A DNA stretch of 59,181 nucleotides from Candidatus Binatia bacterium (GCA_035574535.1 DATLYV010000017.1:1-59181); one strand, 5' to 3'; counted from the first letter of the stretch, positions 36,966 through 50,158 are shown. Numbers and translations: made by a program. Notes: generated by a model not told the origin, from the letters alone.

Positions 36966-37013
36966 AGCCGCGGACGAGGGCCGGAACCGGCCCCACTCCT
37001 ATACTCGCCGGTA

Positions 37014-38456
37014 ATGAACATCACCGTCACGCCGGCACCGAAGAGCGCCCTCAACGTCCGTGTGGAGGTCCCTGCGGAGCGCCTCGATGCGGCCATCGCC
37101 GAGGCCGTCCGCCACCTCTCGCAGCGCAACCGGATTCCCGGCTTCCGCCCGGGCAAGGCCCCGCGCGGCGTGATCGAGGCGGTCGTCGGCAAGGAGGCGG
37201 TGCTCGAGGAGGCGATGGACCACCTGGTCCAGCGGGCCTACCGCGAGGCCCTCGTCGCGAAGGAGATCCTGCCGCTCGCGCAGGCCGAGGTGAACGTCGA
37301 GCAGGGCGAGGAGGGCAAGCCGGTTATCTTCACGGCGACCGTGCCGGTTCGCCCCGAGGTCGAGCTCGGCGACTACCGGAACTTCAACTTCAAGCCCGAG
37401 ATCGACACGATCGACGACGCCAAGGTCCAGAGCGTGGTCGACGAGCTGCGCGAGCAGAACGCCAGCCTGAGCCCGGTCGAGGGTCGCGGCGCCCAGAACG
37501 GCGACTACGCGGTCGTCGGCTACAAGGGCACGCGCGACGGCGAGCCGTTCGAGGGCGGCACTGCCGAGCGGATGCCGCTGATCCTCGGCCGGGAGCGGCT
37601 CATTCCCGGCTTCGAGGCCAACGTCCTCGGCCTGAAGCCGGGCGAGACGACCAGCTTCGACATCACCTTCCCGGAGGACTACCCGGACGAATCGCTGGCC
37701 GGCAAGCCGGCGCGCTTCGAGGTCGAGCTGAAGGAGCTCCGCGAGATGATCCTCCCGCCGGAGGACGACGACTTCGCGCGGTCGCTGGGCCAGTTCGAGG
37801 ATCTCGCCGCCCTGCGCGCGGAGATCCGCACGCGCCTCGAGAAGAACGCCCTTGATCGGGCGCGGCACGAGTTCGCCGACAAGATCATCGAGTACGCGAC
37901 CGCCAATGCGAGCGTGGAGCTGCCCGACGTGCTGGTCGACCAGGAGGTCGAGATCATGCACGACGAGCTGCGCGGCTCCCTCGCCCGCCAGGGCATCGAC
38001 GAGGCGGCGTACATGAAGGTCACCGGCAAGAGCGAGGCGGAGATCCACGCGGAGTTCCGCCCGCGCGCCGAGAAGCGCGTCAAGGTCCTGCTCGTGCTGA
38101 CGAGAATCGCCGAGGCCGAGGGCCTCGAGATCCCCGATCGCGACGTCGAAGCGGAGGTTCGCAAGGCCCGCGCCCGCTACGGCAACGACCGCAAGACGAT
38201 CGCCTACTTCGAGTCCGAGCGCGGTCGGAGCTTCATCCGCTCGACCCTGCGGCGCAGCCGCCTCGTCGAGAAGCTCGTCGACGAGTGGCTCGCCGCCCAC
38301 CCGGACCACCCGCCGATCCCGCACCTCGAGGACGGCGAGGACGTGGAGCTCGAGCCCGACGTCACCGCGGCGTCGGAGCCCCAGCCGTCGCGCGGGTCCG
38401 CCGGGGGAGCGAAGGGCTCGAAGGGCCGTCGCGCCGCCGCCGCGGGTCGCCGCTGA
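37014..38456 (+). CDS. tig: Trigger factor
   Basis: [11 protein letters not shown] ribosome-binding signature, FKBP-type PPIase block and C-terminal arm domain. Lies upstream of clpP-clpX. Confidence 0.92.
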
Positions 38457-38505: not shown

Positions 38506-39234
38506 ATGTACCGAATGCTCGTACCGATGGTCATCGAATCCTCCAGCAGGGGAGAGCGCGCCTACGACATCTACTCGCGCCTGCTGAAGGAGCGGATCAT
38601 CTTCCTCGGCGACGTGATCGAGGATCACCTCGCCAACCTGATCATTGCCCAGCTCCTGTTCCTCGAGTCGGAGGACCCGGAGAAGGACATCAGCCTCTAC
38701 ATCAACTCGCCGGGCGGCGTGGTGACCGCAGGGCTCGCGATCTACGACACCATGCAGTACCTGCGGGCCCCGGTCTCGACGATCTGCATCGGCCAAGCCG
38801 CCTCGATGGCGAGCGTCCTGCTGGCGGCCGGGGCGAAGGGCAAGCGCTACGGCCTGCCGCACAGCCGGATCATGATCCACCAGGGCTCCGGCGGCTTCCG
38901 GGGCGCTCCCCAGGACGCGATCATCCAGATGCGCGAGTGGGAGACGCTCGTTGCCCTGAACCACCAGATTCTCGCGCGCCATACCGGCCAGCCGATCGAG
39001 AAGATCCAGCGCGACACCGAGCGCGACCGCTTCATGAGCCCGGAAGAGGCGAGGGACTATGGCATCATCGATGCCGTCTACAACCTCGAGGGGACGTCGC
39101 TGATCGCAGCGGCCCACGACGCCGGCCTCTCCGGCGGCGAGGGCTCCAGCGTGACGGACTCCTCGGCGGCGACCGAGCGGGAAGGCACGGCGCCGGCCCC
39201 CGAGGCGGAGAAGGAAAAGAAGTCGAAGTCCTGA
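38506..39234 (+). CDS. clpP: ATP-dependent Clp protease proteolytic subunit with a C-terminal extension of about 45 aa
   Basis: [18 protein letters not shown], catalytic GQAASMAS (Ser), IMIHQ (His) and DTERDRFM (Asp). Confidence 0.92.
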
Positions 39235-39280
39235 CCGGGGTCGCGCGGCCGGGACGCCGATCCGAGATCGAGGGCAGCGC

Positions 39281-40594
39281 GTGAGCACGACGAGCGGGAG
39301 CAAGGGGACCAAGGTTCCGTACCGCTGCTCGTTCTGTGGCAAGAGCCAGGAGCAGGTCCGCAAGCTGATCGCGGGCCAGGGCGTCTACATCTGCGACGAA
39401 TGCATCAACCTCTGCCAGGAGATCATCGAGGAGGAGATGCTCGAGCAGCCGAAGACCAAGCCGGCTGCCGCGAAGCTCCCCAACCCCCGGCAGATCAAGT
39501 TCGCGCTCGACCAGTACGTCATCAGCCAGGAGAAGGCCAAGAAGGTCCTCTCGGTGGCCGTCTACAACCACTACAAGCGGGTCAACGCCGGCCACGCGGT
39601 CGATGACGTCGAGCTCCAGAAGTCGAACGTGCTCCTGGTCGGTCCGACGGGCTCCGGCAAGACGTTGCTGGCGCAGACGCTGGCACGCGTGCTGGACGTG
39701 CCGTTCTGCATCGCCGACGCGACGTCGCTGACCGAGGCGGGCTACGTCGGCGAGGACGTCGAGAACATCCTGCTCCGACTCATCCAGGCGGCCGACTTCG
39801 ACGTCGCCCGCGCCCAGCGCGGGATCATCTATATCGACGAGATCGACAAGATCGCCCGCAAGGCCGACAACCCGTCGATCACGCGCGACGTCTCCGGCGA
39901 GGGCGTGCAGCAGGCGCTGCTGAAGATCCTCGAGGGCACGGTCGCGAACGTCCCGCCCCAGGGTGGCCGCAAGCACCCGCATCAGGACTTCATCCAGATC
40001 GACACGACGAACGTCCTGTTCATCTGCGGCGGCGCGTTCGACGGCCTCGAGAAGATCGTCGAGGAGCGGGTGGGGAAGCGGACGATCGGGTTCGGGTCGG
40101 AGAAGGCCGCGGTCGGCTCGGTGGAGCGGGGGCGGATCCTCGAGAAGCTGATGCCGGAGGACCTGCTGAGGTTCGGGCTGATCCCGGAGTTCGTGGGCCG
40201 GCTGCCGGTGATCGTGACGCTGTCCGCGCTGACCTCGGAGGACCTCGTCCGGGTCCTGACCGAGCCGAAGAACGCGATCGCCAAGCAGTTCCAGAAGTTC
40301 CTCTCGCTCGACAAGGTCGAGCTGGTGTTCACGCCGGGCGCCCTGAAGGCGGCCGCGGACGTGGCCCTGGACCGCAAGACCGGCGCGCGGGCGCTGCGGT
40401 CGATCGTCGAGGAGGCGCTCCTCGAGGTCATGTACGACATTCCAGAACGGGCCGACGTCCGCAAGTGCATCATCACCGAGGAGACGATCCGCTCTGGCCG
40501 CCTGCCGCTCCTCCTCACCAAGACCGAGGTCGAGAAGGGCGTCGACGAGACCAACTACGAGGACTGGCTCGCCGCCGAAGGCGCCACCGCCTGA
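39281..40594 (+). CDS. clpX: ATP-dependent Clp protease ATP-binding subunit ClpX
   Basis: Zinc finger CSFCGKSQ...YICDECI, Walker [21 protein letters not shown] and the IGF-type loop region. GTG start. Confidence 0.95.
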
Positions 40595-41674: not shown

Positions 41675-43282
41675 CTAATCACGAGGGTGGCTGGAATCCG
41701 ACGTTCGCCCGCCACGCGTGGACTTGGCACGAGGAGCGGCCCGGGGAGGCGCGCCGGCCGCGGACACGTGTGGCGCGCCGGCCGCCGATGCGTGGGGCGC
41801 GGTGGAGCCCTCCCCGACCAGCGAGATGAACAGGTCCACCAGCTCCGGGTCGAACTGCGTGCCGCGGTTGCGGCGGAGCTCGGCGATCGCCTCCTCGTGC
41901 GACATCGCAGGCTTGTACGGCCGGACGGAGATCATGGCCTCGTAGGCATCGGCGATTGCGACGATCCGCGACCCCAGGGGGATCTCGTTCCCCGCCAGCC
42001 CGTGCGGGTAGCCGGTGCCGTCGAAGCGCTCATGGTGGTGGAGCACGATCTGCGCGGCGTCCCGGATCGCGCCCGCCTGCTCGAGCACCACCTGCCCGAT
42101 CCGCGGATGCTCGACGATCGTCCGCCACTCGAGCGGGTCGAGCTCCGAGGGCTTCGAGAGGATTTCGTCCGGGATCGCCAGCTTGCCGAGGTCGTGCAGG
42201 AGGCTCGCCGTGCGGATGCGCTCGATGTCGGCGTCCGGAAGCCCGACGGCCCGCCCCATGTCGGCCGAGAGGTCCGCGATCAGGCGCGACGCGCCGCCGG
42301 CCCAGCCCGGTCGATCGGCCAGGGCGCCGAGCAGGTGCTCGTGGGCCGCGCCGAACGCCCCACGCCCGATGTCGGCCGCCCGCACCCGCGCCGCCGGATC
42401 GACCGTCGCCCGGACGAGGCTCGTCCGCTCGTCGAGCTCGCGGTGCCGGACGACCTGGTCGCGCCCCGCCTCCTTGGCGCCGTAGAGCGCGCCGTCGGCC
42501 TCGCGCAGGAGCTGGTCGAGATCGAGGCTCCGATGCCCGTCGCCGCCGGTCACGCCGGCGCTGATCGTGACGCAGATCTCGAGATCGACCGGCCGCGTCG
42601 CCACGACCACCGTCGTCCGCCCGAGCACCCGGCGCAGGTTCTCGGCGCTCGCGATGCCGCCGTCGAGGTCTGTCTCCGGCATCACGAGCAGGAACTCCTC
42701 GCCGCCGAAGCGCCCGAGGCTGTCGACTGACCGGACGTTCTCGCGCAGCACCGTCGCGACGTGACGGAGGACCTCGTCGCCGACGGCGTGGCCGTGGGTG
42801 TCGTTGACGCGCTTGAAGTGGTCGATGTCGATGAGCGCGATGGCGAGCGGCCGGCCGTAGCGGTTCGACCGCTCGATCTCAGCCGCAAGGACCCGGAGCG
42901 TCGCCGTCCGGTTGAGGAGGCGCGTCTGCGGGTCGGTGGTCGCGAGCGCCTCGACCTCGGAGATGCGCTGGCTGAGCTGCTCGATCGCCTCGCGCAGCAT
43001 CCGGTCCGGGTAGCGGACCTTCGGACGGGACACCGCGGCAGGGCGGCCCCCCGTGCCGGCCCCGACATCCGAGCCTGCGCCGGGGCGGGCGAGCCGATCC
43101 GCGATGCGCGCGAGCGCGCGTGCGCGCTCCCGCCCCACGAGGAGCGAGAACGCCAGGGCGCCCAGGACGAATCCGATCCCGAGGAACGCGGCGTCGGTCG
43201 GCGCGACGTTGAACGGCAGCTTGGTGCTCCCCGGTGGCCTGGCCTGGTTCTCCTCGGCACCATCGCCGGTGCTCGTCAGCAC
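41675..43282 (-). CDS. Membrane-anchored GGDEF diguanylate cyclase plus HD-GYP phosphodiesterase
   Basis: One TM segment, a coiled coil, I-site RSVD five residues before GGEEF, then HDLGK...[15 protein letters not shown] start. Confidence 0.85.
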
Positions 43283-43482
43283 CTGACCCTAGAACCAAGC
43301 CGGGCCCTCCGGCATCGCCCAAAGGTCCCATATCCGCCAGGTGGCATACGCCGGGCGACGGGCCGGTTCTGGCCACCCGCCCGATACCGCTCACGCGCGA
43401 CACCGGCGAGAGTGCCCGCCAAGGTCCCACGCGGGGCCGGCAGCCGCGGCCCATGAAGCCGCAGTTGGGGGAGCCGGATCAA

Positions 43483-45141
43483 ATGCGACGCCTGGCCGCA
43501 CTCACACTCTCGCTTGGACTGTTGTTCGGAATGGCGAGCGGGCCGATGGCCCAGCCCGCCAGCGCGTCCTCGCTCAAGATCTGTGGCGAGGTCACGCTCT
43601 ACGTCAAGGCCACGATCCTTGGGACGGGCCTGCTGACGATCAACGGCATCCCGCTGGTGATTGCCGCCGGCGCGGTCCTGCCGGCGAGCGTGCAGGTCGG
43701 CGCGGACATCTGCATCGACCTCACGACGAACCTCCTCGGGTTGATCACCGGCGGCGCCGTGACGGCGAACGTCCACGCCGAGGTGAAGGTCTGCGGGGTG
43801 GTCCAGGCGTACACCGAGGCCACCGCCCTCACGACCGGGCTCCTGAAGATCGGTGGCCACACGTTCATCCTCGGGCTCGGGTCGAAGCTCCCGGCAGCCG
43901 TCGAAGTCGGCGACGACATCTGCCTCGACCTCGACATCGACGCCTTCGGGCGGGTGGCCGACGGCACGGTCACCGCGAACGCCCACGTCCACCTGAAGGT
44001 CTGCGGCACCGTCACGGCCTACACCAAGGCGACGGCGACGACGACCGGCATCCTGCAGATCGGCTCGAAGAGCTGGATCCTCGCGGTCCTCTCGAACCTG
44101 CCGGCCACGGTCCAGGAAGGCGCGAACCTCTGCCTCGACCTCGAGCTCGACGGCTACGGCCGAATCAGCGACGCGGAGGTCTCGGCGAACGTCGAGGCCA
44201 CGGTCAAGATCTGCGGCACGGTCACCGCGTACACGGCTGCGACCGCCTCGACCCTCGGCGTCCTGAGGATCGCCGGCAAGACCTTTTCGATCGCGCTGGA
44301 CGGCGACCTGCCGGCCAACGTGCAGGCGGGCGCGAACCTGTGCCTCGATCTCAACCTCAACGGCTTCTTCCAGATCAAGGACGGCACGGCGGTCGCCAAC
44401 GTCGAGGCCACGGTGGACGTCTGCGGCCAGGTGACCGCGTACGTCGCCGCGACGCCGTCGGTCGACGGAAGCCTGACCATCGCCGGGATCGTCCGGAAGA
44501 TCCGCGCCGGTGCGGACGTCGATGCGGGCGTCGCTGTCGGGGCCTACCTCAAGCTCCGGCTGACGGTCGACGTGTTCGGCCGGATCGCCAAGCTGACCGT
44601 GCTCAAGGTCAGCGTCTCGCTCTCCGACGCGTGCGACGCGACCAGCCCGACCCCGACCCAGGACCCGGGCCAGAGCCAGCAGCCCGGCCAGAGCCAGGCT
44701 CCGGACCAGAGCCAGCAGCCCGGCCAGAGCCAGGAACCGGGCACGTCGCCCGACCCCGGCACGAGCCAGGATCCCGGCTCCTCGGCCGGGGCGGACGAGA
44801 GCCACGAGCCCGCCGGGCCCACGGAGCCGCCCACGGCGGGCGGCCCCACCTGCGTCGACTCGGGCGTGGGCAGCGTCACGGCCGAGGGTGACGGCGGGAC
44901 CCTCCTGCCGAGCACCGACGCCCTCGGCCGGGCCACGCGGATCCTCGTCAGCAACGCCATCCCGCTGATCGCGATCGGCATGCTGAGCGCCTTCGCCGCC
45001 TGGTACCGCTCGCGCCGTCGCGACGACGAGGAGTCGCTCGACGAACTCCCGCTCGCCGAGGCCGGCCTCGGGGCCGATGCGGGTTCCTCGCACCTCACTG
45101 GCGCCACGGGCCATGACGTGGCGCCGGAGCCCCGGTCGTGA
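43483..45141 (+). CDS. Secreted, membrane-anchored protein with five 70-aa two-Cys repeats
   Basis: GGGGGAG lies 8 nt before ATG 43483. Signal peptide ends PASA|SS. Repeats, a PGQSQ linker, LPSTD, a TM helix, RSRRR and an acidic tail follow. Trimmed from track ORF 43234-45141. Confidence 0.75.
   Translation: MRRLAALTLSLGLLFGMASGPMAQPASASSLKICGEVTLYVKATILGTGLLTINGIPLVIAAGAVLPASVQVGADICIDLTTNLLGLITGGAVTANVHAEVKVCGVVQAYTEATALTTGLLKIGGHTFILGLGSKLPAAVEVGDDICLDLDIDAFGRVADGTVTANAHVHLKVCGTVTAYTKATATTTGILQIGSKSWILAVLSNLPATVQEGANLCLDLELDGYGRISDAEVSANVEATVKICGTVTAYTAATASTLGVLRIAGKTFSIALDGDLPANVQAGANLCLDLNLNGFFQIKDGTAVANVEATVDVCGQVTAYVAATPSVDGSLTIAGIVRKIRAGADVDAGVAVGAYLKLRLTVDVFGRIAKLTVLKVSVSLSDACDATSPTPTQDPGQSQQPGQSQAPDQSQQPGQSQEPGTSPDPGTSQDPGSSAGADESHEPAGPTEPPTAGGPTCVDSGVGSVTAEGDGGTLLPSTDALGRATRILVSNAIPLIAIGMLSAFAAWYRSRRRDDEESLDELPLAEAGLGADAGSSHLTGATGHDVAPEPRS
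43576..44622 (+). repeat. Five coding tandem repeats, 210-nt period
   Basis: The module K[IV]CG.V.AY..AT...G.L.I.G...LPA.V..GA.[IL]C[IL]DL...G.I.DG.V.ANV.A.V occurs 5 times. The fifth copy is degenerate. Confidence 0.85.
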
Positions 45142-46094
45142 CCGCGGAGTCGCGCCCGATGCTCCTCGCGCGGGCGGCCGCAGCCCTGCGGCCGCCGCGC
45201 GACTTGGACGGCGAGGCCGACCTGCCCGCGATCGTCGATCCGGCGGTCGGACTCGTGCGGTCCGTGGAGGTCCTCTCGATCGTCACGCTCGCCATCGTGG
45301 CCCTCACGTCCCCGACCCGCGTCGGCGCGGGCTACACCCTGTCCGACATCGGGGCTCTCCTGGTCCTCTACGCGATCGGCACGTTCGCCCTGTCGCGGCT
45401 GCCCTGGGACCGGCTGCCGTCGACCGCGGCGGTCGCGATCGTCGGGGCGCAGCTGCTGTTCGTGGTGAGCCTTACCACGGTCACGGGTGGCGGCCGCTCG
45501 CCGTACTTCGTCCTCTATGCGCCGATCCTGGCCCTCGCCGGATGGCACCTCCGCCGGGACTGGGTCGTGCTGACCGTCGCGGCCGTCGCGATCATCGAGT
45601 GGTGGCGGGCGATGGTCCTCGAGGGCGGGCAGGGGACCGCCAGCCAGCTCGTGGTCGCGCTGCCGCTGTTCGCGGCCATCGCGGCCCTCGCGCACATCAC
45701 CGCCGAGCGCCTCCTGACCGCGATCGTGACGATCCGGCGGGACCAGGTCCGCACGGCGGAGACGCTCGCCGCGATCCAGCGGCTCGCCTCGACGCCGGTC
45801 GGCGACCCACTCGTCGTCGCGAGCGAGGCCGCGGAGCGGATCTTCGAGTCGCGTGCCCGGATCGTCCGGGTCGACCCGCCGGCTGCGCCGTCGGCCGTGC
45901 CTGACCTCGTCGCGCGGAGCGAGTCGGGCCGGCGGCTGTCCGTCGGCGTCACGGGCTCGACGGGCACCCACGCCATCCTCGAGCTGGAGCGGGCCGAGCC
46001 GTTCTCGGTCACCGAGGTGCGGCTCGCCGGGATGCTCGGCGGGACCGCGGGCCAGGCGGTCGACCGGCACCGCGGCCGGGGCGCCCACCTCTAG
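45138..46094 (+). CDS. Multi-pass membrane protein with a small C-terminal soluble (GAF-like?) domain and no recognisable output domain
   Basis: GTG overlaps the upstream TGA (GTGA). About five TM segments, then about 120 aa of soluble sequence. Confidence 0.6.
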   Translation: MTAESRPMLLARAAAALRPPRDLDGEADLPAIVDPAVGLVRSVEVLSIVTLAIVALTSPTRVGAGYTLSDIGALLVLYAIGTFALSRLPWDRLPSTAAVAIVGAQLLFVVSLTTVTGGGRSPYFVLYAPILALAGWHLRRDWVVLTVAAVAIIEWWRAMVLEGGQGTASQLVVALPLFAAIAALAHITAERLLTAIVTIRRDQVRTAETLAAIQRLASTPVGDPLVVASEAAERIFESRARIVRVDPPAAPSAVPDLVARSESGRRLSVGVTGSTGTHAILELERAEPFSVTEVRLAGMLGGTAGQAVDRHRGRGAHL

Positions 46095-46288
46095 GCCGGC
46101 CGAGCCGGGCGGCAGCAAGGCGAGGCGGGCCCAAACGGGGGGCGGCCGGGGCCATGACCGGGGGGAGGATCGGGTCATATCGCCGCGCCCGCGTCGCCGC
46201 TGCAATGCGTGGAACACCGGCAACGGTGGAGGGCAACGGGAGCAGGTCGGACGTCGGCGCCACGGGCGGGCGCGAGACCTGGAGTGAC

Positions 46289-47002
46289 ATGGCAACGCGT
46301 TCCCGGGAGCCAATTCGTGGGGCTCCGCCGGCGAGCGTCCTCGTCGGAGACCCGGTGATGCTCGTTCGGGCCGGCCTGCGGTCGGTCATCGACGGCGACC
46401 CGGCGTTCCGCGTCGAGGCCGAGGCGGTCGACGGCGCCCAGGCACTCGAGATCCTAGCGCGCCTCAGGCCGCGGCTCGCCGTCCTCGCGACGGCCCTCCA
46501 GAACCCCACCGGCATCGAGGTCGTTCGCCAGGCGCGCGCGGCCGCCGCTGAGACCGCGATCGTGCTGCTGGCCCGCTCGGACGAAATGGACACGATCCTC
46601 GACGGCTTCCGCGCCGGCGCCATCGGCTTCGTCCGCGCGGACGTCGAGCGCATCGAGCTGCTTACGTCGCTGCACCGGGCCCTCGCAGGGGAGTCGGTCG
46701 TCGACCCGGCCACCGCCACGCAGCTGATCCTCCGCATGGCCAGCGAATCGGAGCTGGTGAACTCGGCCACGCCGGTCCCCCTGACCCCGCGCGAGCTCGA
46801 GATCCTGGGCTTGATGGCCCGCGGCCACACGAACCGCGAGATCGCGGAGCGGCTGATCGTCGCCGTGGGGACGATCAAGGTCCACGTCGAGCACATCCTC
46901 GGCAAGCTCGGTGCGGCGGACCGGACGCAGGCGTCGGTCCGGGCGGTCGAGCTGGGGCTCGTGCAGGGCGACCAGGGGACCCACCCGACGCCGCTCCGCT
47001 GA
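46289..47002 (+). CDS. LuxR/NarL-family regulator with a degenerate (pseudo-)receiver domain
   Basis: C-terminal HTH LTPRELEILGLMARGHTNREIAERLIVAVGTIKVHVEHILGKLG. Receiver-like N-terminus lacks the phospho-acceptor Asp. GGAG-N4-ATG at 46289. Confidence 0.8.
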   Translation: MATRSREPIRGAPPASVLVGDPVMLVRAGLRSVIDGDPAFRVEAEAVDGAQALEILARLRPRLAVLATALQNPTGIEVVRQARAAAAETAIVLLARSDEMDTILDGFRAGAIGFVRADVERIELLTSLHRALAGESVVDPATATQLILRMASESELVNSATPVPLTPRELEILGLMARGHTNREIAERLIVAVGTIKVHVEHILGKLGAADRTQASVRAVELGLVQGDQGTHPTPLR

Positions 47003-47068
47003 GCCGGCGCGCGGGCGCCCATTCGGGGCGACTCCATCGCACGCCCTCCGAACCTTCGCCAGGTGCCG

Positions 47069-47077
47069 TGGTAGAGT
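47069..47077 (+). promoter_or_regulatory. Extended -10-like element TGGTAGAGT upstream of the T-box leader
   Basis: TGn plus TAGAGT about 12 nt before the first T-box stem I element. No good -35 seen. Confidence 0.35.
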
Positions 47078-47089
47078 GCCGGCCTCACG

Positions 47090-47330
47090 GCGACGACCGA
47101 GAGGAGTAGCGCCCCACTCGGCCACGAAGCGAGCGCGGGACGGTGCGAGCCGCGCGGGTACCGAGGCGTGAACGTCACTCGCGAGCCGTGCGGGCGGCGC
47201 CCGATAGCGCGCCACGAGGAGGCCCCGGGACCGGCGACTGGCCGGACGGGCGGGTGATGGGCCGGCGCGGCGGGACCTCGAACCAGCAGGTGGTACCACG
47301 ACCCCGTTCGTCCGCTGGACGAGCGGGGCG
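47090..47330 (+). promoter_or_regulatory. T-box leader RNA, candidate Val (GUC) specifier, controlling valS
   Basis: GAGAGGAGTAGC (47099-47110), distal-loop-like GGTGCGA (47142-47148), GAAC-GTC-A (47170-47177), T-box core AACCAGCAGGTGGTACCACG (47281-47300), and a 12-bp hairpin at 47302-47328 followed by CGTTCGATTTCT. Confidence 0.75.
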
Positions 47331-47356
47331 TTCGATTTCTGGAGGCGAGAGACGGC

Positions 47357-50158
47357 ATGGCGGACGGCACGACGACCGACGCGACCACGGACGCGACCAC
47401 GGACGCGACCGCGGCGACGGACAAGGCCGCCGGGGACCCGGCGGCCCGGGGTGCCCGCGGGGAGCTGCCCAAGGCCTGGGTCCCGGCGGACCACGAGGCC
47501 GGGCTCTACGAGCGCTGGCTGACCGCGGACGTCTTCGCGCCGGACGGTAAGGGCACCAACCCCGACCCGAGCCTGCCGCCGTTCGTGATCATCCAGCCGC
47601 CCCCGAACATCACCGGCGCGCTCCACCTCGGCCACGCGCTGACCTTCACCCTCGAGGACACGATGATCCGGCACGCCCGGATGCTCGGCCACGAGACGCT
47701 CTGGCTGCCGGGCCTCGACCACGCCTCGATCGCCGCCCAGTACGTCCTGGACAGGATCATCGCCGCGGAGGGCGAGACCCGCGAGTCGCTGGGCCGCGAG
47801 CGCTACCTCGAGCGGATGTGGCGGTTCATCAACGAGACCCGCGAGGTGATGCTCGCCCAGGAGCGGCGGCTCGGCGTCTCGGCGGACTGGGGCCGGCTGC
47901 GGTTCACGATGGACGAGGGCTCCGCCCGGGCCGTCCGCGTCAGCTTCAAGCGCTTCTACGAAGACGGGCTCGCGTACCGCGCCGAGGGCCTGATCAACTG
48001 GTGCCCCGGTTGCCGCACCAGCGTCTCGGACCTCGAGGTCATCCCGAAGCCCGAGACCGGCACGCTCTGGTCGATCCGCTACCACCTGCTCGACGAGGCG
48101 ACCGGCGAGCCAACCGACGAGACGATCACCGTCGCGACCACCCGTCCCGAGACGATCCTCGGCGACACCGCCGTGGCCGTCCACCCGGAGGATGCGCGCT
48201 ACGAGGGCCTGGTCGGGCGGAAGGTCCGGATCCCGTTCGTCGAGCGCGACGTGCCGGTCATCGCGGACGGCATCGTCGACCGCGAGTTCGGCACCGGCGC
48301 CGTGAAGGTCACGCCGGGCCACGACAAGAATGACTACGAGATCGGGCAGCGGCACGGGCTCCCGTCGATCTCGGTCATGAACGACGACGCTTCCCTCAAC
48401 GACGCGGCCGACCGCTACGCCGGCCTCGATCGCTTCGAGGCCCGACGCCGGATCCTGGATGACCTCCGGGCCCGCGGCGACGTCGCGGGAGAGCGGCCGC
48501 ACGAGATGCTGATCGGTCGCTGCCAGCGCTCGGACGACGTCATCGAGCCGCGCCTGAAGACCCAGTGGTTCATCAGGGTCCGGCCGCTCGCCGAGGCGTC
48601 GCTCGCGGCGACCCGCTCGGGCGAGACGAGGATCGTGCCGGCGCGCTTCGAGAAGGTCTGGGAGCACTGGCTGACGAACCTCCACGACTGGAACGTCAGC
48701 CGTCAGCTCTGGTGGGGCCACCGCATTCCGGCGTGGTACTGCCCGGACGGCCACGTGACGGTCTCGGACGAGGCCGGCGGCCCGCCGGCGTGCGAGGTCT
48801 GCGGTCGCGCCGCCGCCGAGCTGACCCAGGACCCCGACATCTTCGACACCTGGTACAGCTCCGGGCTGTGGCCGTTCTCGACGCTCGGCTGGCCGGATCG
48901 GACCGAGGACCTCCGGCGCTACTACCCGGGCACGATCATGGAGACCGGCTACGACATCATCTTCTTCTGGGTCGCCCGGATGATGATGACCGGCATCCAC
49001 CTGATGGATGCCGTGCCGTTCCACACGGTCTACCTGCACGGGCTCGTGAAGGACCCGTACGGCCAGCGGATGTCGAAGACGAAAGGCAACGTCGTCGACC
49101 CGCTCGAGGCCATCGACACGGCCGGTGCCGACGCCCTCCGATTCGCCCTCCTGAACGGCACCTCGCCCGGCAACGACCAGAAGTTCTCGCCGGAGCGACT
49201 CGAGGACGGCCGCAACTTCGCGAACAAGCTCTGGAACGCGACGCGGTTCGTGCTGGGCGCGCGCCCCTCGTCGATCGACGCGGCCGACGCGGGCACGCGG
49301 CGGGCGCCCGACGAGGCCCGCCTCGGCCCGACGGAGCGCTGGATCCGCTCGCGAGCCGCGGCCACCATCGCGGCGGTCGACCGGGCCTTCGCAGACCACA
49401 ACTACGGCGAGGCGTCGCGGGCGCTGTACGACGCGATCTGGGCCGAGTTCTGTGACTGGGGAGTCGAGCTCGCGAAGGTCCGCCTCGCCGACGAGGCGCT
49501 CGATCCTGCCGAGCGGGACGCGACGTGGTGGACGCTCGTCGAGGCGCTCGACACGTACCTCCGCCTGCTCCACCCGGTCATGCCGTTCGTCACCGAAGCG
49601 CTGTGGAACTCGCTGCCGCACGCGGAGGGCGACCCGGAGCTGCTGATCGTCGCCCGCTGGCCGAAGGCCGGCCCGGTCGATGCGGCGACCGAGCGGTCGG
49701 TCGGGCAGGTCATCGAGCTCATCCGGTCGATCCGGAACGCCCGCGCGACCGTCGGCATCGCCCCATCGGAGTGGCTCCCGCTCGACCTGTTCGTCCCGGG
49801 CCGCCAGGCCGCTTCGTTCGACGCCTTCCGCCCGGCGATCGAGCGGCTGGCGCGCGTCCGGCCGATCCACCCGCACGCGGACCGCGCGGCGCTCGAGCAT
49901 GCCCCGGTGGGGTCGCTCGGGATCATCGCCGGCGAGTTCGAGGGCCGGCTGCACGCCCGCGCCGAGGCGGCGGAGGCCGACCGGGCCCGGATCGGGAAGG
50001 AACTCGCGCAGGCCGAGGCGGCGCTGGCGTCGACGCGCACCCGACTCGCCGACGCGACCTTCCTGGCGAAGGCGCCAGCGCACATCGTCGAGGGCGCCCG
50101 CGCGCGGGAGGCGGAACTCGCGGAGAAGGTCGAGAAGCTGCGCGCCTCCCTGGGCTAG
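47357..50158 (+). CDS. valS: Valine--tRNA ligase
   Basis: HIGH region PPPNITGALHLGHAL, KMSKS region RMSKTKGN, and a C-terminal coiled coil. GGAGG lies 11 nt upstream. Confidence 0.95.
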   Translation: MADGTTTDATTDATTDATAATDKAAGDPAARGARGELPKAWVPADHEAGLYERWLTADVFAPDGKGTNPDPSLPPFVIIQPPPNITGALHLGHALTFTLEDTMIRHARMLGHETLWLPGLDHASIAAQYVLDRIIAAEGETRESLGRERYLERMWRFINETREVMLAQERRLGVSADWGRLRFTMDEGSARAVRVSFKRFYEDGLAYRAEGLINWCPGCRTSVSDLEVIPKPETGTLWSIRYHLLDEATGEPTDETITVATTRPETILGDTAVAVHPEDARYEGLVGRKVRIPFVERDVPVIADGIVDREFGTGAVKVTPGHDKNDYEIGQRHGLPSISVMNDDASLNDAADRYAGLDRFEARRRILDDLRARGDVAGERPHEMLIGRCQRSDDVIEPRLKTQWFIRVRPLAEASLAATRSGETRIVPARFEKVWEHWLTNLHDWNVSRQLWWGHRIPAWYCPDGHVTVSDEAGGPPACEVCGRAAAELTQDPDIFDTWYSSGLWPFSTLGWPDRTEDLRRYYPGTIMETGYDIIFFWVARMMMTGIHLMDAVPFHTVYLHGLVKDPYGQRMSKTKGNVVDPLEAIDTAGADALRFALLNGTSPGNDQKFSPERLEDGRNFANKLWNATRFVLGARPSSIDAADAGTRRAPDEARLGPTERWIRSRAAATIAAVDRAFADHNYGEASRALYDAIWAEFCDWGVELAKVRLADEALDPAERDATWWTLVEALDTYLRLLHPVMPFVTEALWNSLPHAEGDPELLIVARWPKAGPVDAATERSVGQVIELIRSIRNARATVGIAPSEWLPLDLFVPGRQAASFDAFRPAIERLARVRPIHPHADRAALEHAPVGSLGIIAGEFEGRLHARAEAAEADRARIGKELAQAEAALASTRTRLADATFLAKAPAHIVEGARAREAELAEKVEKLRASLG
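47371..47410 (+). repeat. In-frame 12-nt tandem repeat encoding (TTDA)3 at the valS N-terminus
   Basis: ACGACCGACGCG / ACCACGGACGCG / ACCACGGACGCG read directly. Confidence 0.85.

Follow-up and report, generated by a model that had tools for sequence, protein, structure and literature searches.

The stalks of Gram-positive adhesins and pilins (SpaA/CnaB, SdrD B) are made of covalently locked repeats, in which an isopeptide bond locks an Ig-like sandwich. Two described systems read a protein segment at the membrane: PilS senses its bitopic partner PilA inside the membrane (PMC6058289), and the SGO_1180 system of Streptococcus gordonii senses a sortase-cleaved C-peptide, according to a passage of PMC11326707 that cites Hall et al. 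(2019). Here we describe a locus with likenesses to all of these, found in a 59,181-nucleotide stretch of DNA deposited as Candidatus Binatia bacterium (GCA_035574535.1 DATLYV010000017.1:1-59181; the whole stretch is called the window, and positions are counted from its first letter). The open reading frame (ORF) at 43483–45141 on the + strand encodes a repeat protein, which we call REP, and is followed by genes for a protein with about six transmembrane (TM) segments and a GAF-like part (the 6-TM/GAF-like partner) and for a NarL/LuxR-type regulator. REP is a real, uncharacterised cell-surface protein of Limnocylindria (Chloroflexota). In the reading that we favour, and that we hold with hardly more belief than doubt, REP is a type-I-anchored surface stalk that would work together with the 6-TM/GAF-like protein and the regulator.

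REP follows a plan well known from surface proteins of monoderms: a signal peptide, a repeat stalk, a Pro-rich spacer and a C-terminal anchor. Its repeated module belongs to a known, uncharacterised Pfam family. What is new is the rare, Cys-stapled subfamily of 70-residue modules, the anchor of the type LPxT..R..P in which the Thr is not followed by Gly, and the lineage-specific gene trio in which the stalk is accompanied by a kinase-less, Asp-less pair. By analogy, REP resembles the SpaA and SdrD stalks in its signal peptide, in what would be a locked array of beta-domains, in a Pro-rich spacer that could span the wall and in its C-terminal anchor; it differs from them in its predicted OB-like (oligonucleotide/oligosaccharide-binding) barrel, in its predicted lock, which would be a disulfide, and in its anchor, probably a TM helix and not the product of a sortase. 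The modules share with DUF5666 (PF18914, a domain of about 60 residues) a G..T..G...I consensus, an all-beta prediction and, via relatives, an end-to-end alignment, whereas their strict 70-residue period, conserved Cys pair and LPAxV loop set them apart. The C-terminus likewise has the LPxT, hydrophobic helix and nearby Arg cluster of an LPXTG sorting signal, but Gly never follows the Thr, and there are an extra conserved Arg, a fixed spacing to a Pro of the TM helix and an acidic tail of 4–39 residues. The best structural matches, OB/cold-shock arrays (Drosophila Unr CSD789, 7zhh, and HIN), point to a likeness of fold class only: these arrays are cytoplasmic or nuclear nucleic-acid binders with 9–18% identity to the REP module, which is predicted to be extracytoplasmic and Cys-stapled. 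Finally, the partner of REP resembles PilS in its six TM segments and minimal outside loops, and in that its translation is apparently coupled to that of a bitopic protein whose TM segment is strongly conserved. Unlike the PilS and SGO_1180 systems, it has no histidine-kinase domain; its output part is GAF-like, with GGDEF in some members, and the regulator lacks the phospho-acceptor Asp.

The features of REP are the following.

43483–45141, + strand: REP coding sequence, 552 aa plus stop (ORF and translation, Shine-Dalgarno sequence, third-position G+C, homologues).
43483–43566, + strand: predicted Sec-type signal peptide, with MRR, a hydrophobic core and an ASA/SS cleavage site (sequence reading; AlphaFold2 (AF2) helix at residues 2–18).
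43576–43785, + strand: module 1, N-terminal type, aa 32–101, Cys34 and Cys77 (periodicity, profile, Cys).
43786–43995, + strand: module 2, aa 102–171, Cys104 and Cys147 (same evidence).
43996–44205, + strand: module 3, aa 172–241, Cys174 and Cys217 (same evidence), 60% identical to module 4.
44206–44415, + strand: module 4, aa 242–311, Cys244 and Cys287 (same evidence, and an AF2 model of aa 238–308).
44416–44640, + strand: module 5, aa 312–380, terminal type without Cys46, followed by SDACDA with Cys384 at 44632–44634 (conservation).
44641–44850, + strand: disordered spacer rich in P, Q, S, G and T, with PGQSQ hexapeptide repeats (Tandem Repeats Finder (TRF), composition, AF2).
44851–44853, + strand: odd, apparently unpaired juxtamembrane Cys457, 18 residues before LPSTD (Cys pattern of core proteins).
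44905–44931, + strand: juxtamembrane motif LPSTDALGR, consensus [LVIM]P[DS]T[DANS]x[LIF]xR, with LPSTD at aa 475–479 (conservation).
44932–45006, + strand: TM helix, about aa 484–508, with invariant Pro494 (AF2 helix 479–517, conservation).
45007–45021, + strand: RSRRR stop-transfer cluster, aa 509–513, predicted on the cytoplasmic side (sequence, positive-inside rule).
45022–45138, + strand: acidic tail, predicted cytoplasmic, 39 aa, net charge -9 (composition).

A Shine-Dalgarno (SD) sequence, GGGGGAG (43467–43473), lies 9 nt upstream of the ATG at 43483. The NCBI record (VNL94_01195, 531 aa) begins 21 codons downstream, at Met22, and drops 43483–43545. The ATG at 43483 is the better start, since the NCBI start would delete the signal peptide and since both the SD sequence and the N-termini of the homologues, which have MRRxAAL in common, match this ATG. 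In a window of 72% G+C, the REP frame has a G+C content at third codon positions (GC3) of 0.91. A search of 5.8 billion proteins gave 65 homologues, not counting the NCBI entry of REP itself, none of them with a protein name. Relatives with an organism label came from metagenome-assembled genomes (MAGs) of Limnocylindria/Chloroflexota, except for one Euzebya sp. and one Anaerolineae bacterium; this taxonomic census is thin, and a 16-sequence REP alignment led to only three GTDB loci, all Limnocylindrales or Chloroflexi.

The predicted signal peptide has an AxA site and coincides with an AF2 helix at residues 2–18, and residues A28, S30, L31 and K32 are invariant among close homologues. According to the positive-inside rule, a basic cluster remains cytoplasmic. 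With RSRRR placed inside and an AF2 helix at residues 479–517, a protein with its N-terminus outside and its C-terminus inside is predicted. REP as a lipoprotein was ruled out, as it has no lipobox and its first Cys is that of a module. An earlier note on this DNA had described a secreted protein with a signal peptide: the signal peptide and export stand, as predictions, while free secretion does not, REP being instead a predicted type-I membrane-anchored protein.

Compared with itself, the REP protein was 49% identical at an offset of 70 residues and at most 14% identical at all other offsets from 50 to 99. At the nucleotide level, offsets of 210 and 420 gave 63% and 58% identity, and other offsets about 40%; TRF detected the 210-nt period for modules 3 and 4 only, which are the most similar pair. 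A hidden Markov model (HMM) built from the five modules placed them at residues 32–101, 102–171, 172–241, 242–311 and 312–380 (nucleotides 43576–44622). Both the 210-nt periodicity and the boundaries of the five 70-residue modules that had been proposed earlier were thus recovered, the latter exactly. In most homologues the first position is occupied by a type 1 module, and the last one is always of type 5, a terminal type that reads ...AYLKLRL...F.RI...; the number of internal modules varies from 1 to 4 among homologues, for a total of 3–6 copies.

Neither REP nor its single modules gave a significant match in Pfam, NCBIfam or the PDB sequences; a match of REP to ChpA-C (chaplin) at E=0.096 was dismissed as noise. 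For DUF5666 (PF18914, gathering score 27 bits), no match was obtained with the 552-aa REP at E ≤ 10 or with module 4 alone, and just 3 of 80 single modules reached this family at E<0.01. A few distant relatives with 6–9 modules carry a precomputed PF18914 annotation, and seven relatives (P0044, P0038, P0062, P0061, P0067, P0074 and P0082) scored 30–76 bits on PF18914. A profile of the core modules (193 internal modules) was compared by hhalign with the modules of distant relatives (P0038, P0044, P0054 and others, most of which pass the DUF5666 cut-off), and the two aligned over all 70 columns (99.8%, E=4e-29). By this match to the modules of DUF5666-passing relatives, the REP module is a diverged, Cys-containing relative of DUF5666, forming a subfamily of its own at the profile level. 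DUF5666 is itself without known function, and the literature found lists it only in expression or proteome tables. The module is rare, with 580 clusters found in a set of 1.84 billion representatives, and larger module-bearing relatives combine it with DUF11, CarboxypepD_reg, SdrD_B, SpaA, Big_9 and He_PIG domains, company that fits an extracellular role.

The full-length AF2 model, made with a 47-sequence alignment, has five strands in each module, with a pLDDT of about 90, and shows both the spacer and the tail as disordered. A single module (aa 238–308, with 80 diverse modules aligned) was modelled as five strands with a pLDDT of 95.2 and a pTM of 0.82. When the five-module model was compared with the PDB by Foldseek, the matches were tandem cold-shock/OB arrays (Unr CSD789, 7zhh, E=3e-4), HIN, LEF-3 and EF-P. 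The single module gave mostly OB-type matches (ExoVII, RumA, cold-shock domains, HIN, the SilB C-terminal domain 2l55 and RecO) with TM-scores of 0.45–0.59; the best E value was 0.19, and low-scoring matches of the ketosteroid-isomerase type were also present. Foldseek against viral structures gave no match below E=0.04. On these models the predicted fold class of the module is OB-like, without a close solved structure. The earlier note had placed the module in no characterised family, with DUF5666 and OB-like repeats as the nearest thing, and this view agrees with the lack of direct matches, in particular to any functionally characterised family, with the hhalign result and with the five-stranded OB-like prediction. 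Metal binding by analogy with the SilB/CusF OB domain was not adopted, as the module consensus has no conserved Met, His or Trp.

The Cys residues follow a strict pattern. Modules 1–4 have them at module positions 3 and 46, that is, two Cys per module as had been noted earlier. Every internal module of the 49 complete core proteins has Cys3 and Cys46, with a one-residue shift in three modules. In a wider set of 739 modules from 195 proteins, 617 had both Cys and 31 had none; the second occurred without the first in only 1 module, and the first without the second in 90, a class expected to consist mostly of terminal modules. In the AF2 single-module model, position 3 belongs to strand 1 and position 46 to strand 4. 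Strands 1 and 4 adjoin in an OB barrel, so that an intramodule disulfide is geometrically plausible. In keeping with the earlier proposal of disulfide candidates, the strong co-occurrence of the two Cys and their location in the model suggest that each module probably forms a Cys3–Cys46 disulfide.

Module 5 had been described as having lost its second Cys. Cys46 is indeed absent, but the module is not decayed: the residue is replaced by the invariant C384. Neither C314 nor C384 varies among 47 sequences, and a Cys is present 3–5 residues (nearly always 4) past the last module in 49 of 49 complete core proteins. This conservation makes C384 the likely partner of C314, and module 5 a likely conserved terminal type rather than a decayed copy. 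A further Cys occurs 15–28 residues ahead of the LPxT motif in 39 of the 49 core proteins, and the number of mature Cys is odd in 33 of them. The corresponding Cys457 of REP could possibly form an intermolecular disulfide; the 6-TM/GAF-like protein has no Cys and so cannot be its partner.

The region between the modules and the motif agrees with the low-complexity PGQSQ spacer described earlier. TRF found 18/36-nt repeats at 44643–44778, the commonest of its 70 residues are P (15), Q (12), S (10), G (10) and T (8), and the AF2 pLDDT is below 50 over residues 393–483. The LPSTD motif, the single hydrophobic helix and RSRRR are all present at residues 475–513, as the earlier note had them; the acidic tail, given there as about 45 residues, counts 39. 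P476 and T478 are invariant and R483 nearly so, and Pro494 is invariant at a fixed distance of 18 residues past Pro476 in the aligned tails. The LPxT motif is present in 52 of 52 complete core members, and the residue after the Thr is D (24), A (22), N (4) or S (3), never G (0). The tails of the homologues are 4–39 residues long and net negative in 47 of 52. The conserved end (..[ED]xRS) of these otherwise variable tails coincides with the ribosome-binding site and the start codon of the following gene, which overlaps REP; its conservation is largely accounted for by these DNA signals and does not have to mean a function of the tail. In other lineages, P0123, P0134, P0109, P0189 and P0140, which have the same module, end in canonical or near-canonical sortase signals (LPQTGGG, PQTGGG, LPFTG or LPSTS), and P0140 holds internal repeats of QLPSTSTASELG.

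The neighbouring features are given below; handles beginning with L denote related loci, and those beginning with P denote proteins.

45138–46094, + strand: 6-TM/GAF-like partner, 318 aa, about six TM segments with short outside loops, and a C-terminal GAF-like part predicted to be cytoplasmic (overlap, hydropathy, homologues).
46154–47002, + strand: NarL/LuxR-type regulator with Response_reg and GerE, start uncertain (homology from near aa 43–57).
41675–43282, - strand: GGDEF + HD-GYP gene, divergent (Pfam GGDEF 1.1e-38, HD_5 3e-42).
36966–38453: tig.
39155–40591: clpX.
47258–50155: valS.
47302–47338, + strand: terminator-like stem-loop, a 12-bp GC-rich hairpin with a T-run, before valS (consensus scan only).

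The stop codon of REP (TGA, 45139–45141) overlaps the GTG start of the partner (45138) as GTGA, and a GGAG (45126–45129) lies 8 nt upstream of this start. In a count that covers the window and L001–L003, L006 and L007, such a stop/start overlap (GTGA, ATGA or TGATG) was also found in L002, L003, L006 and L007; the REP stop and the called partner start of L001 are 17 nt apart. The partner family has 64 homologues, restricted to the lineage of REP, and no Pfam family of its own; a search of the PDB with the family profile gave nothing. Its members have an invariant core, TGGGxSPYFxLYAPxLAxAGWHLR...EWWRA, about six hydrophobic segments and outside loops no longer than about 12 residues. A weak match to GAF_2 was obtained in 10 of 25 members (best E=2.4e-4), with 16.7 bits for the window partner against a cut-off of 28.6. 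Similarly, 6TM_PilS (PF25323) was matched weakly by 2 of the 25 (best E=0.0046), below the cut-off of 27 bits, and one further member reached 12.1 bits over profile positions 23–182 of 189. The partner carries an extra C-terminal GGDEF in L002 and P0257.

One protein, P0173, reads as a two-module REP-like part followed by an Arg-rich out-of-frame stretch and a 6-TM/GAF-like N-terminus. It was rejected as a REP/6-TM fusion, because of the Arg-rich out-of-frame stretch and of its normal sibling P0184; from its sequence it is probably a frameshift read-through, in which case the same two genes would be adjacent in a more distant, two-module relative.

The regulator matched Response_reg with 40 bits (cut-off 30.2) and GerE with 59.8 bits. 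Its receiver is degenerate, as seen when its residues were mapped by alignment to Escherichia coli NarL. The phospho-acceptor position (NarL D59) is Ala in the window and A, T, S or G in L001, L003 and L005–L007. Arg takes the place of K109 in the window, L001 and L005–L007, but the Lys is kept in L003; the more distant L002 copy keeps both residues. As the phospho-acceptor Asp is missing and no kinase gene, in particular none for a histidine kinase, is present in the cassette, the alignment suggests that the regulator is phosphorylation-independent.

REP, the 6-TM/GAF gene and the gene of the Response_reg+GerE regulator follow each other in the same order in six of the six related loci that extend downstream. 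Conservation of the neighbourhood, a check that the earlier note had proposed, is therefore seen for the whole trio. In addition, two protein searches gave eight further pairs of REP and partner homologues on contigs of equal size.

We propose the following scheme for the favoured reading. In a monoderm host, REP would be exported by the Sec pathway, lose its signal peptide and adopt an N-out/C-in topology. A rod of five OB-like barrels would be displayed, each barrel locked by a disulfide between strands 1 and 4, and the last one via C384. The disordered spacer of about 90 residues, long enough to cross the wall, would keep the rod off the membrane, in which REP would be retained by its single TM helix, RSRRR and the acidic cytoplasmic tail. 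The stop/start overlap would ensure that REP is made together with the 6-TM/GAF-like protein, and with them the putatively phosphorylation-independent NarL-type regulator. Since the 6-TM protein has no extracytoplasmic domain, the LP[DS]T..R..P segment of REP is proposed as the site of contact or processing. Through this segment the state of the surface stalk would be read in the membrane and relayed to the expression of genes; synthesis of cyclic di-GMP (c-di-GMP) may be the output instead in some lineages.

Several points weigh against this scheme. Synteny and overlap show co-expression and not a contact between REP and the 6-TM protein. The trio is moreover part of a housekeeping block (tig, clpP, clpX, trio, valS) that is syntenic across the lineage, so that part of its linkage could be due to vertical inheritance. 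The 6TM_PilS and GAF_2 matches of the partner are below the Pfam thresholds. Lastly, true LPXTG tails in relatives allow the motif to be a processed sorting signal and not an interaction surface. We also put forward, as a rather unlikely extension, that the LP[DS]T..R..(18 aa)..P element is the signal of an undescribed envelope circuit: either as a remnant left after cleavage by an unrecognised sorting enzyme, or intact, it would be read by the PilS-like 6-TM/GAF protein, and this kinase-less, Limnocylindria-specific circuit would control the phosphorylation-independent NarL-type regulator or, in lineages where the 6-TM/GAF protein has GGDEF, c-di-GMP synthesis.

REP could also be a stand-alone structural or adhesive spacer or stalk, whose neighbours only regulate its expression or are merely syntenic, without any contact; we regard this as possible, with clear reservations. 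Many surface or adhesin-like proteins with several domains contain the module, with no such neighbours known for them, and the copy number drifts between 3 and 6 by gain and loss of internal modules, as in adhesin stalks. The position of the locus in a conserved housekeeping block fits a stand-alone stalk as well, and the nearby c-di-GMP enzymes would fit a regulation of surface adhesion. However, the stop/start overlap and the internal SD sequence are kept in homologues down to 43% identity, and the 6-TM/GAF family is as narrow as REP and found on the same contigs. Furthermore, the LP[DS]T..R..P anchor is present only in the REP family, which has the partner, whereas other module proteins end in a plain TM segment with RRR or in LPXTG. 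These three observations speak against a stalk that stands alone.

Another explanation is that a sortase-like enzyme, or some other enzyme of C-terminal sorting, has REP as its substrate, LP[DS]T[DANS] being the LPXTG variant of this lineage, cut after the Thr. The stalk would then be bound covalently to the wall, and the remnant, made of the TM helix and acidic tail, could be sensed by the 6-TM protein. The tripartite layout of motif, hydrophobic helix and Arg cluster is that expected of such a signal, and the Pro and Thr of the motif are kept in 52 of 52 proteins. Some sortases accept a residue other than Gly at the fifth position, as in LPNTA (Bacillus class D) and LPQTxE (Lactobacillus plantarum). 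The REP motif may descend from an LPXTG signal, since canonical LPQTGGG or LPFTG ends are found in some relatives that have this module. Two homologues scored 16.7–18.7 bits on TIGR01167 (LPXTG_anchor, cut-off 15.9 bits), and the sensing of a remnant peptide has a precedent, at least as PMC11326707 reports it in citing Hall et al. (2019).

Other observations make such sorting unlikely. Gly is absent from position 5 of the motif, as detailed above. On TIGR01167 the REP tail scored 13.3 bits, and profile positions 11–32 only, the TM and basic part, were aligned; in the two homologues above the cut-off the alignment started at profile position 5 and the motif was again left unaligned. Where TIGR01167 expects Gly (or the known variants Ala and Asn) after the Thr, a score that covers the motif and a short basic terminal tail, REP has Asp, a score from the helix and Arg cluster, and an acidic extension; in homologues, 4–39 residues extend past the Arg cluster. 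The other curated sorting models (PEP-CTERM, MYXO-CTERM, GVDTG, GPS-CTERM and others) all stayed below threshold, with matches to the generic TM+RRR part only. No curated sorting-signal model covers the LPxT motif of REP, and the view that the C-terminus is sortase-like and not canonical, expressed in the earlier note, is upheld. Separated from the helix by about 8 residues, with a conserved Arg and a fixed spacing to the invariant Pro of the TM helix, the motif resembles a structural or interaction element. No ORF of the window has a TLxTC sortase signature, and no second motif-bearing protein is encoded there; no literature was found linking Limnocylindria with a sortase. Searches for other proteins with this anchor gave nothing usable: a profile built from 43 anchors and run on 5.8 billion proteins gave a single 67-aa fragment and missed the REP family itself, perhaps owing to composition filtering of a TM-rich profile, and a degenerate DNA pattern (PDTASLxR..P) matched L002 and none of the metagenome contigs, while missing known JGI members of the family; both searches are uninformative.

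That the repeat ORF is not a gene at all, but a chance ORF in 72% G+C DNA or a tandem-repeat assembly artefact, is already refuted by the evidence: DNA of this composition does yield long spurious ORFs on both strands, and many in the window are spurious, including a 612-aa ORF antisense to REP that fails a GC3/GC2 filter, but REP has the high GC3 given above, 65 homologues of the same architecture on independent contigs and a fold predicted with high confidence, and its modules, only 36–60% identical in pairs, are not an assembly duplication.

The window most resembles Limnocylindrales. Its clpX is 87–94% identical to that of related loci (92–94% for L001, L004 and L007), its tig 64–77% (73–77% for the same three loci, 77% for L001) and its valS 65–71%. 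The related loci belong to Limnocylindrales/Chloroflexota MAGs or to unlabelled metagenome contigs and have the same local gene order. From the identity of tig, clpX and valS to Limnocylindrales MAGs, we infer that the contig comes from Limnocylindria (Chloroflexota); the NCBI label 'Candidatus Binatia bacterium' is probably wrong, by mis-binning or misclassification.

In the window, the divergent GGDEF+HD-GYP gene lies between clpX and the cassette and breaks the tig-clpP-clpX-REP order of L001, L002 and L004. In L006 its orthologue is on the opposite side of the cassette, which is a third link between the cassette and a c-di-GMP enzyme. These positions suggest that the GGDEF+HD-GYP gene is associated with the cassette. 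On the other side, the stem-loop before valS could terminate an operon of the three genes or form part of a valS leader; it is not a recognised T-box, since an Rfam scan of 42900–47600 matched no family.

Limnocylindria are abundant, uncultured Chloroflexota of freshwater and soil, and little is known of their envelope. The REP family offers a confidently modelled, putatively disulfide-stapled OB-like relative of DUF5666 for which there is no solved structure, and a conserved non-Gly LPxT anchor that lies outside the curated sorting models. The cassette is compact and testable, and combines a predicted surface stalk, a 6-TM/GAF membrane protein and a regulator that is probably not phosphorylatable in the usual way. 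Should the link between REP and its neighbours be functional, the locus would exemplify envelope signalling that needs no histidine kinase; otherwise, these results still give about 60 'hypothetical proteins' an annotation, and correct the start codon and the taxon label of this record.

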